Source: Nematocida ausubeli
Taxonomy: Eukaryota
NCBI RefSeq assembly: GCF_000738915.1
Contig: NW_026515636.1
Coordinates: 707,175-769,062, forward strand
Reading direction: 5' to 3'
Length of the DNA: 61,888 nucleotides
Shown: positions 27,884-28,443 of the stretch, one piece after another
Layout: each line of letters opens with the position of its first letter
How positions within the stretch are numbered: the stretch's first letter is position 1
Notes under the pieces: model-generated
Databases searched by the model: none
Seen by the model: the letters and a program-made list of their open reading frames with translations, nothing else
Told to the model about the DNA's origin: nothing
Program-made: the position numbers and the translations under genes

Positions 27884-28443
27884 TGACAGAATATATTCCA
27901 CTTATTACAAAATATATTACTCTGGTGACAAGACTTAATCCATTTATTCAGAATATATTACACTGGTGACAAGACTTAATCCACTTATACAGAATATATT
28001 ACATATGTGACAGAATATATTACACTTATTACAAAATATATTACTCTGATGACAAGACTTATGCTTTGTGTATTCTCTGAGTCTGACAAGACTTAATCCA
28101 TATTTCTTCCTTAAATGTGCGTAATAAATAATGTCTAAATATATGACTAATTATAACGGGTTATTATTTATAACTTATTACACTATGTGGATTAAGTCTT
28201 GTCTGTTTTGGGATATGTGGATTAAGTCTTGTCAAGTTTATAAAGAGTGGAAAAAATAATGTATATGTGGAATATATTATGACAAAGTGGAAAAAGTTAT
28301 GCAAAAGTAGAATATATTCTGTCATTACGGATTAAGTAATGTATTTGTGGATTAAGTCTTGTCATTGTGGAATATATTCTGTTAATTATAGGATAAGTGG
28401 ATTAAGTTCTGTCGTATTTTATAAAAGAGGAATATATTCTGTC
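27884..28443. repeat. Phased inverted array B (forward copies 27887-28183, reverse copies 28187-28441)
   Basis: Forward spacings 21,21,20,21,20,21,21,21,34 then a longer gap; reverse spacings 30,30,20,20,20,20,20,20,30,30. Confidence 0.92.

Follow-up and report, generated by a model that had tools for sequence, protein, structure and literature searches.

A 13-kb patch of helically phased motif arrays is possibly centromere DNA in the nematode-infecting microsporidian Nematocida ausubeli

Microsporidian centromeres are described, in the accessible portions of the published accounts, as unlocated and perhaps epigenetic or holocentric (PMC13174016, PMC10158259, PMC12449221, PMC7643970). According to the same portions, they were not found in Encephalitozoon or in a wider microsporidian survey (PMC10158259, PMC12449221), and the proposed ones are ultra-low-GC regions of 25 kb in Antonospora locustae (PMC7643970) and regions rich in retroelements and methylation in Microsporidia sp. 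MB (PMC13174016). The available part of another study does not mention centromeres (bioRxiv 10.1101/2025.05.12.652816), and further background was taken from extracts of PMC3514677 and PMC7058166. The centromeres of the yeast Wickerhamomyces anomalus, located by Hi-C, are reported in an extract of the original paper to carry a 21-bp motif, the 5-9 copies of which are separated by spacers of 6 bp and lie almost exclusively on the same strand, within a single large intergenic region (Hession et al. 2025, PMC12711049). Here we describe a patch of motif arrays in N. ausubeli that is real and possibly represents candidate centromere DNA of this nematode-infecting microsporidian.

The window, by which we mean the whole stretch of 61,888 nucleotides analyzed, carries eukaryotic housekeeping genes with few introns, as well as a polyprotein of the Ty3/gypsy type (Pfam scan of 36 ORFs). 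Its RPL10/uL16 protein, encoded on the minus strand at 27180-27833, is 99% identical to a protein of N. ausubeli and 87% identical to that of N. parisii; together with the housekeeping genes, the former match places the stretch on a microsporidian chromosome and not in a prokaryote, plasmid or virus. The first-pass annotation had likened two of the arrays, B and C, to origins of the archaeal, viral and plasmid type. This does not agree with a eukaryotic chromosome in which none of the 36 ORFs belongs to an initiator family, nor with the two-copy motif pattern giving no match in either viral contigs or prokaryotic genomes, a search that excludes exact patterns alone. The resemblance of the oriented, phased sites to protein-binding sites was supported, a role in chromosome maintenance appearing the best reading.

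The motif copies, 107 in total, form a patch at 26235-39377 and are arranged in five arrays (A-E) amid housekeeping genes. The coding fraction of the patch is 0.46-0.50 in comparison with 0.74-0.76 in the flanks, with genes nonetheless found between and beneath the arrays; its GC content is mildly below that of the surroundings and no retroelement is present within it. Array A1 (26235-26546) consists of 14 forward copies and A2 (26810-26910) of four, and a plus-strand tRNA-Phe(GAA) gene (26721-26796) lies between them, tRNA being the only structured-RNA family detected with Rfam in 24000-43500. Array B starts 50 bp from the start of RPL10 and comprises a forward run of 10 copies rich in an ATATATT sub-variant (27884-28101), a 64-bp gap (28102-28165), a head-to-head pair (28166-28204) and a reverse run of 11 copies capped by that pair (28187-28444). 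Array C lies in the spacer between two stop codons and shows 13 forward copies (36754-37096), a 57-bp gap (37097-37153), a head-to-head pair (37154-37192) and, capped by it, 10 reverse copies (37175-37405). An endosulfine-like gene on the minus strand (37433-37795), with a motif pair in its linker (37526-37564), precedes array D (37834-38427, minus strand), whose 24 copies begin with a head-to-head cap, continue as a reverse run and then alternate in orientation. The SNAPC3-like gene (38455-39015, plus strand; Pfam E 5.5e-5, just under the cut-off) has a linker insertion built of motif copies: the four alternating copies of array E1 (38723-38803) are inside its coding sequence. Array E2 (39010-39285, plus strand) has 11 copies, first alternating and then in a forward run, with an extra weak copy at 39360.

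Between B and C, a motif-free middle of 8.3 kb (28445-36753) contains seven genes; the motif runs bordering it point outward, and the gene strand changes within it, near 32250. As the arrays occupy tandem, convergent and divergent spacers, flank a tRNA gene and extend inside two ORFs, with seven motif copies overlapping ORFs, they do not obey promoter logic. Elsewhere in the window, ORFs of a Ty3/gypsy-type retroelement (protease, RT, RNase H and integrase) are located at 72-4369, 22 kb off the patch, and two GATA zinc-finger genes in tandem at 10573-11511. Large ORFs (937-1137 aa) that match no Pfam family are found at 58391-61804, 43517-46330, 47180-50017 and 5544-8366, the first of them being internally repetitive. 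Just beyond array E, a 73-bp tandem repeat (39584-39745; 2.2 copies, 93% alike) contains AACCCGAA.

The motif is pseudo-palindromic and 17/18 bp long. An iterated profile gives the consensus 18-mer TGACAAGACTTA(A/T)TCCAC, with the pseudo-dyad at position 9. As in motif-array centromeres, the motif is clustered at one locus and absent from the surrounding DNA: of the profile matches scoring above 9 bits, 105/107 fall within 26235-39377 and two in the remaining 49 kb of the 62-kb window, in comparison with 6-21 matches per window in shuffled sequence. At a threshold of 7 bits, the numbers are 107 inside the patch and seven outside. The copies are diverse, 96 of the 107 having distinct sequences, and the variation is unevenly distributed over positions (P = 3e-16, a value overstating independence because the copies are related by descent). 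With leave-one-out calling, three positions are near-invariant (A5 in 101/101, A8 in 101/102 and T11 in 99/101 copies), whereas positions 1-3, 6 and 15 vary freely among the 96 distinct variants. No description of the motif was listed in searches of an open-licence literature library.

The spacing of the copies follows a simple rule. Centers are 20-22 bp apart in every orientation, or else 30, 31 or 41 bp apart; by way of background, the family of repeats of EBV oriP has a 30-bp period. Same-strand neighbors are at 20, 21, 30, 31 or 41 bp, giving a distance modulo 10 of 0 or 1, in 72 of 75 cases (best period 10.2 bp), and 27 of the 30 longer steps between copies are in phase (P = 3e-16). Position 9 is the best dyad of the profile, and the same center sets all four orientation classes at 20-22 bp, the eight tail-to-tail pairs all being at exactly 21 bp. 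The phase is held across unrelated linkers and across inversions, and the motif arrays present oriented sites on one helical face, a property of iteron-type origins. A protein with two-fold symmetry that binds along a single helical face would be expected to have sites with such a phased and symmetric pattern, and the patch likely serves as a platform for protein binding.

In the first-pass annotation, arrays B and C had been read as a single designed module, centered on a dyad and present twice. The proposed layout of forward run, gap, forward copy, TAT and reverse run is indeed present in both arrays, but the gap of B is not free of motifs and contains a weak reverse copy at 28119-28136 (13.5 bits). 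The claimed near-identity of the junctions (28173-28201, with the forward copy at 28166, and 37161-37189, with the forward copy at 37154) was confirmed with 27 matches in 29 positions, random joins of real copies giving a mean of 19.2 and P(>=27) = 0.0023 (1,000,000 joins); when the comparison is extended to the two motifs in full, it gives 30/39 (P = 0.058), the 29-bp window having been chosen after the fact. The patch contains 13 head-to-head pairs, six of them at 21 bp, and the copies of these six end in TACAC in 7 of 12 cases versus 3 of 95 among the others (P = 3e-6). B and C are the closest of the 15 comparisons among the 21-bp pairs, with 27 matches against 19-25 in the rest. The B/C junction is a recurrent head-to-head sub-type and a minor feature of the patch. 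The same cap begins array D and sits inside a coding sequence, and because the long reverse runs of B, C and D all open with a head-to-head pair, a "capped reverse run" fits the data at least as well as a "dyad center". That B and C are duplicates was ruled out: they have no linker between copies in common, and the ATAT sub-variant is found in 10 copies of B and one of E. A 23-bp linker is common to C and E. The unit that matters is the motif with its spacing rule over the 13-kb patch, not the B/C module.

The gaps of the two arrays are AT-rich as claimed (0.77 in B and 0.74 in C) but barely above the arrays themselves (0.66-0.73). As unwinding elements they are not outstanding, with approximately 20% of intergenic 57-mers being less stable than either gap in a nearest-neighbor sum, which is not a supercoiling model. 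A TAACCCG-like site is found in both gaps but on opposite strands and at opposite ends (minus strand in gap B, plus strand at the left edge of gap C), and the 23 occurrences in the window together with the opposite strands rule it out as a part of a module. TAACCCG looks like a general spacer motif: the 23 copies of TAACCCG(AA) extend over 20216-55008, with 19 in the interval from 20 to 38 kb, and lie in both spacers and ORFs. A general factor of the Reb1/Tbf1 kind possibly binds it. A cruciform was not borne out either, the junctions folding weakly at -3.0 and -4.9 kcal/mol (z scores of -2.0 and -1.8); with junction folds of just -2.6 to -4.9 kcal/mol, a cruciform or stable hairpin element was ruled out.

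Transferred to a eukaryote, the origin idea of the first-pass annotation would make the patch an origin of replication, or a zone of origins, that is defined by sequence instead of a centromere, and in which an initiator or licensing helper binds the phased sites in the manner of EBNA1 at EBV oriP. We regard this as unlikely. The centers are 21 bp apart, the same distance as between paired EBNA1 sites of the dyad symmetry element, as given in an extract of PMC3798644, and ORC subunits are reported, in the part of the literature seen, as lost in Microsporidia. In addition, 23 of 32 genes point away from approximately 32.25 kb (P = 0.02, with the center chosen after the fact), genes within the patch have an AT skew of 0.42 at fourfold sites in comparison with approximately 0.1 outside (P = 5e-13), and the cumulative GC skew reaches its minimum at approximately 28-35 kb. 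However, the skews track gene strand, GC skew at fourfold sites shows no excess and, because just two genes of the patch point inward, replication and transcription are inseparable here, the replication skew being confounded with gene strand. The unremarkable stability of the gaps also speaks against an origin, and 107 sites over 13 kb would greatly exceed the need of an initiator.

Arrays of this kind are not limited to the window. We aligned to 36600-39500 the contigs of 4 out of 21 sequencing runs, X1, possibly the source of the window, X6 and X7 from one study and X10 from another. Of the 66 X1 records aligned, 55 were less than 99% alike, and the summed depth rose from 37 in ORFs to 391 per bin in the arrays and 675 at 39238. 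All three motif-bearing snippets taken from X1 contigs were absent from the window, and a 3414-bp X1 record with the single-copy depth of 37.5 contains the block 38730-38801 with six differences (72 bp, 92% identical), the best other place in the window for this four-copy block having 28. As single-depth contigs carry arrays absent from the window, related arrays exist at other loci of the genome and whole blocks are common to the loci. A rough division of record counts gives approximately 3-10 patches per genome; N. parisii is reported, in the source as available, to have fewer than eight chromosomes.

The contigs of X6, X7 and X10 are colinear with the window over array C, its gap and its junction, showing 14-18 differences in 287-398 letters, compared with 7-12 differences in 774-947 letters in ORF-rich records. 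The strains differ by indels of -72 (X6 and X7), -143 (X7) and +31 and 20 gap letters (X10). The indel lengths of 20, 31, 42, 72 and 143 bp correspond to 1.95-13.95 helical turns and are all whole turns; this is not proof of selection, since slippage between copies keeps the phase by itself. Among 31 array-region differences, 17 are in motifs and none affects A5, A8 or T11 (P ~0.045). These 31 come from the 40 listed of 201 differences, after leaving out nine listed rows outside the arrays, and some of them are perhaps from other loci.

The motif has also entered the coding sequences of two conserved genes. In the endosulfine-like gene, an assignment based on a weak Pfam match (E 0.003, below the cut-off), the motif pair at 37526-37564 reads GQDLLQSEPKVME, and positions 4-18 of the motif translate as QDLIH. 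The true start of this gene is likely the ATG at 37795 and not the TTG at 38035; the small protein has a KYFDSAD motif conserved across Nematocida. At the same site, the orthologs of N. parisii, N. sp. ERTm5 and N. sp. AWRm78 contain four (in one allele five) tandem units of 14 residues with the sequences NQDLLH, NQDLIH and NHELLH. These 14-aa units, equal to 42 bp, are motif-compatible, with up to 19.8 bits attainable in back-translation against a null of five windows of >=18 bits in 7032 residues. The HELLH units of the N. parisii clade fit the motif weakly, at just 11 bits, and the forward copy alone is recognizable in the units. Tandem 14-residue units are absent from the endosulfine-like orthologs of N. 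minor, N. major, N. homosporus and N. sp. AWRm80. From the units in the N. parisii clade we infer that the motif would be older than the ausubeli/parisii split. In the SNAPC3-like gene, most orthologs have a shorter linker at the place of the motif block of the window, and one allele has 14 more residues (42 bp) at the block. The insertion in the N. parisii SNAPC3-like linker was considered as a motif derivative but is not clearly one, the best score being 13.7 bits.

The locus can be followed to a distant relative, L001, the RPL10 of which is 74% identical. Eight genes are found there in the same order and orientation (27180-39015 in the window and 446-10657 in L001), most of their proteins being 26-53% identical, but the syntenic L001 locus has no copy of the motif, the best match scoring 7.2 bits. 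The positions of arrays B and E hold unrelated tandem repeats of 25 and 31 bp, respectively, and the spacer orthologous to array D is just 45 bp long. The 25-bp repeat lies upstream of RPL10 at 9749-9873, in the position of array B, as five degenerate copies with an internal dyad; it does not recur elsewhere in the L001 sequence compared or in the window. Small ORFs in the middle of the block (32298-32693 in the window and 5317-5643 in L001) gave faint Pfam matches to CENP-H (E 0.046) and Mis12 (E 0.043). These are far under the cut-offs and probably coiled-coil noise, and tblastn detected no orthology between the two ORFs. The spacers of the patch area (22429-40286) have skewed low-complexity tracts, mostly G/T-rich and then C/A-rich, with a 100-bp GC skew of up to +/-0.7-1.0 in comparison with mostly <0.6 elsewhere in the window. 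Like tracts are present in the orthologous L001 spacers at 3044-3394, 6283-7434 and 8905-9222, the L001 block being compared without its flanks, and such tracts may be a sign that the locus has long been special.

An explanation that we find improbable is that the patch represents a recently arisen minisatellite family, selfish or neutral, which multiplies locally through slippage and gene conversion without any useful binding. A minisatellite would be consistent with the absence of the motif from the same locus in L001, the frequent copy-number change and the low-complexity tandem repeats that the host spacers hold in both species; likewise, the tolerant protein linkers that the motif entered have taken unrelated insertions in other species. 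It does not account for a phase kept across unrelated linkers and inversions, for tail-to-tail pairs at one fixed distance, or for three near-invariant positions among 96 distinct variants, and the motif is apparently common to the N. parisii clade, with its 87% identical RPL10.

The same clustering, phasing and constraint would be seen if the patch were a docking site for another chromosome-scale function, such as the loading of cohesin or condensin, the pairing of homologs or tethering to the nuclear envelope. The pairing centers and rex sites of nematodes are analogues of such an element. Nematocida is reported, in the portion of the source available, to retain Rec8 and 20 of 29 core meiotic genes, in line with such a function, but nothing positive singles it out and the closer fungal precedents for motif arrays are, in the extracts available, centromeric (PMC12711049, PMC7292649), making the explanation a very unlikely one. 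Highly improbable, too, are remnants of foldback or MITE-type DNA transposons with transposase-binding subterminal repeats, or transcription-factor arrays serving neighboring genes. Consistent with one or the other are the opposite orientation of the two arms in both B and C, the position of B 50 bp upstream of RPL10 and that of D between divergent genes. However, the arms are not true inverted repeats (at longest 42 nt at 74% in B and 75 nt at 73% in C), no direct repeat adjoins the ends of A, B, C or D, no transposase family is found among the patch ORFs, and C sits between two stop codons and E1 inside coding sequence; a foldback/MITE element was ruled out for its lack of true arms and target-site duplication.

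A cis element acting at the scale of the chromosome fits the motif, as it is clustered, phased, constrained, lineage-restricted, present at few loci and indifferent to gene layout. The best reading of the patch is a centromere defined by its sequence, as a motif array, to which an origin is perhaps coupled; in our judgement this is evenly balanced between being right and being wrong. Weighing against it are the seven genes in the middle, the lack of long inverted repeats and the absence of the motif from L001. A fuller version can be proposed only tentatively, and its combination of parts is rather doubtful: Nematocida would have evolved, independently of yeasts, a genetically defined centromere with one 13-kb patch per chromosome, in which approximately 100 phased and orientation-free sites polymerize a lineage-specific dimeric protein, overlapping working genes, spreading into coding sequences in steps of 42 bp and perhaps doubling as the main origin.

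Under the centromere reading, a two-fold symmetric protein would read the invariant bases C4, A5, A8 and T11 and, because of its symmetry, accept either orientation of the motif provided that the centers stay 20-22 bp apart. Dimers of this putative DNA-binding protein would bind next to one another along a single helical face, and by loading cooperatively at many arrays they might then create a platform that specifies or stabilizes the kinetochore region. For the polymerizing protein of the fuller version, the models are the plasmid segrosome and EBV oriP. The platform step is modeled on what has been proposed for the motif arrays of W. anomalus and Candida tropicalis. Slippage and unequal exchange between copies would add and remove whole turns, and blocks could be copied between patches of different chromosomes, as expected if the patches cluster in the nucleus; the B/C junction would then be one copied head-to-head block capping reverse runs and not a separate element. 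An early replication origin is possibly coupled to the patch.

A phased motif patch makes the question of the unlocated microsporidian centromere directly testable, and a defined motif provides a direct handle on it in a parasite for which C. elegans serves as a model host. If the centromere reading is true, a centromere defined by sequence would have arisen independently in Nematocida, and protein linkers would have been rewritten by DNA of this type; should the patch prove to be an origin, it would belong to the rare eukaryotic origins that are defined by sequence. The element could also help to build stable episomes for a group that was reported, in the portion seen of a 2013 paper, to be without genetic manipulation.

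Among known systems, the patch resembles the proposed microsporidian centromeres in being a comparatively gene-poor region of unusual make-up that is put forward by inference. No short phased motif is described for those in the available parts of the reports, and the N. ausubeli patch would differ in being sequence-defined and without a retroelement. The likeness to EBV oriP is an analogy of geometry: there, according to the extract of PMC3798644, sites for a dimeric protein lie 21 bp apart from center to center beside longer repeats, and one element serves replication and segregation. That system is a viral episome with a viral protein, whereas here geometry is what likens it to a chromosome of a fungus-related parasite. 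The centromere-coupled early origins of Candida albicans and Yarrowia lipolytica indicate, as far as the extract of Koren et al. (2010, PMC2924309) goes, that an origin and a centromere may coincide and leave a skew switch; the cumulative skew of the window turns within the patch as well but is confounded with gene strand.

Closer likenesses are found in the motif arrays of yeasts. The 12-bp IR motif of C. tropicalis is, in the extract of Guin et al. (2020, PMC7292649), present in many copies at one locus, leaves the central part free, points outward, as do here the runs on the right of B and the left of C, and is part of sequence common to the loci. The homogenized inverted-repeat centromeres of that species have long inverted repeats around the core; none of these were found here, the B/C arms reaching <=42-75 nt at 73-74%, and in a comparison based on sequence alone the patch also differs by its 8.3-kb center with seven genes and by outer runs of reverse polarity. 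In comparison with W. anomalus, the N. ausubeli patch, known from its sequence and likened by layout, has 107 copies in five arrays, in both orientations, with whole-turn phasing and among and into genes. What the two have in common, judging from the extract of PMC12711049, is a short, degenerate motif that does not extend to more distant relatives and is repeated in tandem at regular intervals, with few fully conserved positions and within one region.
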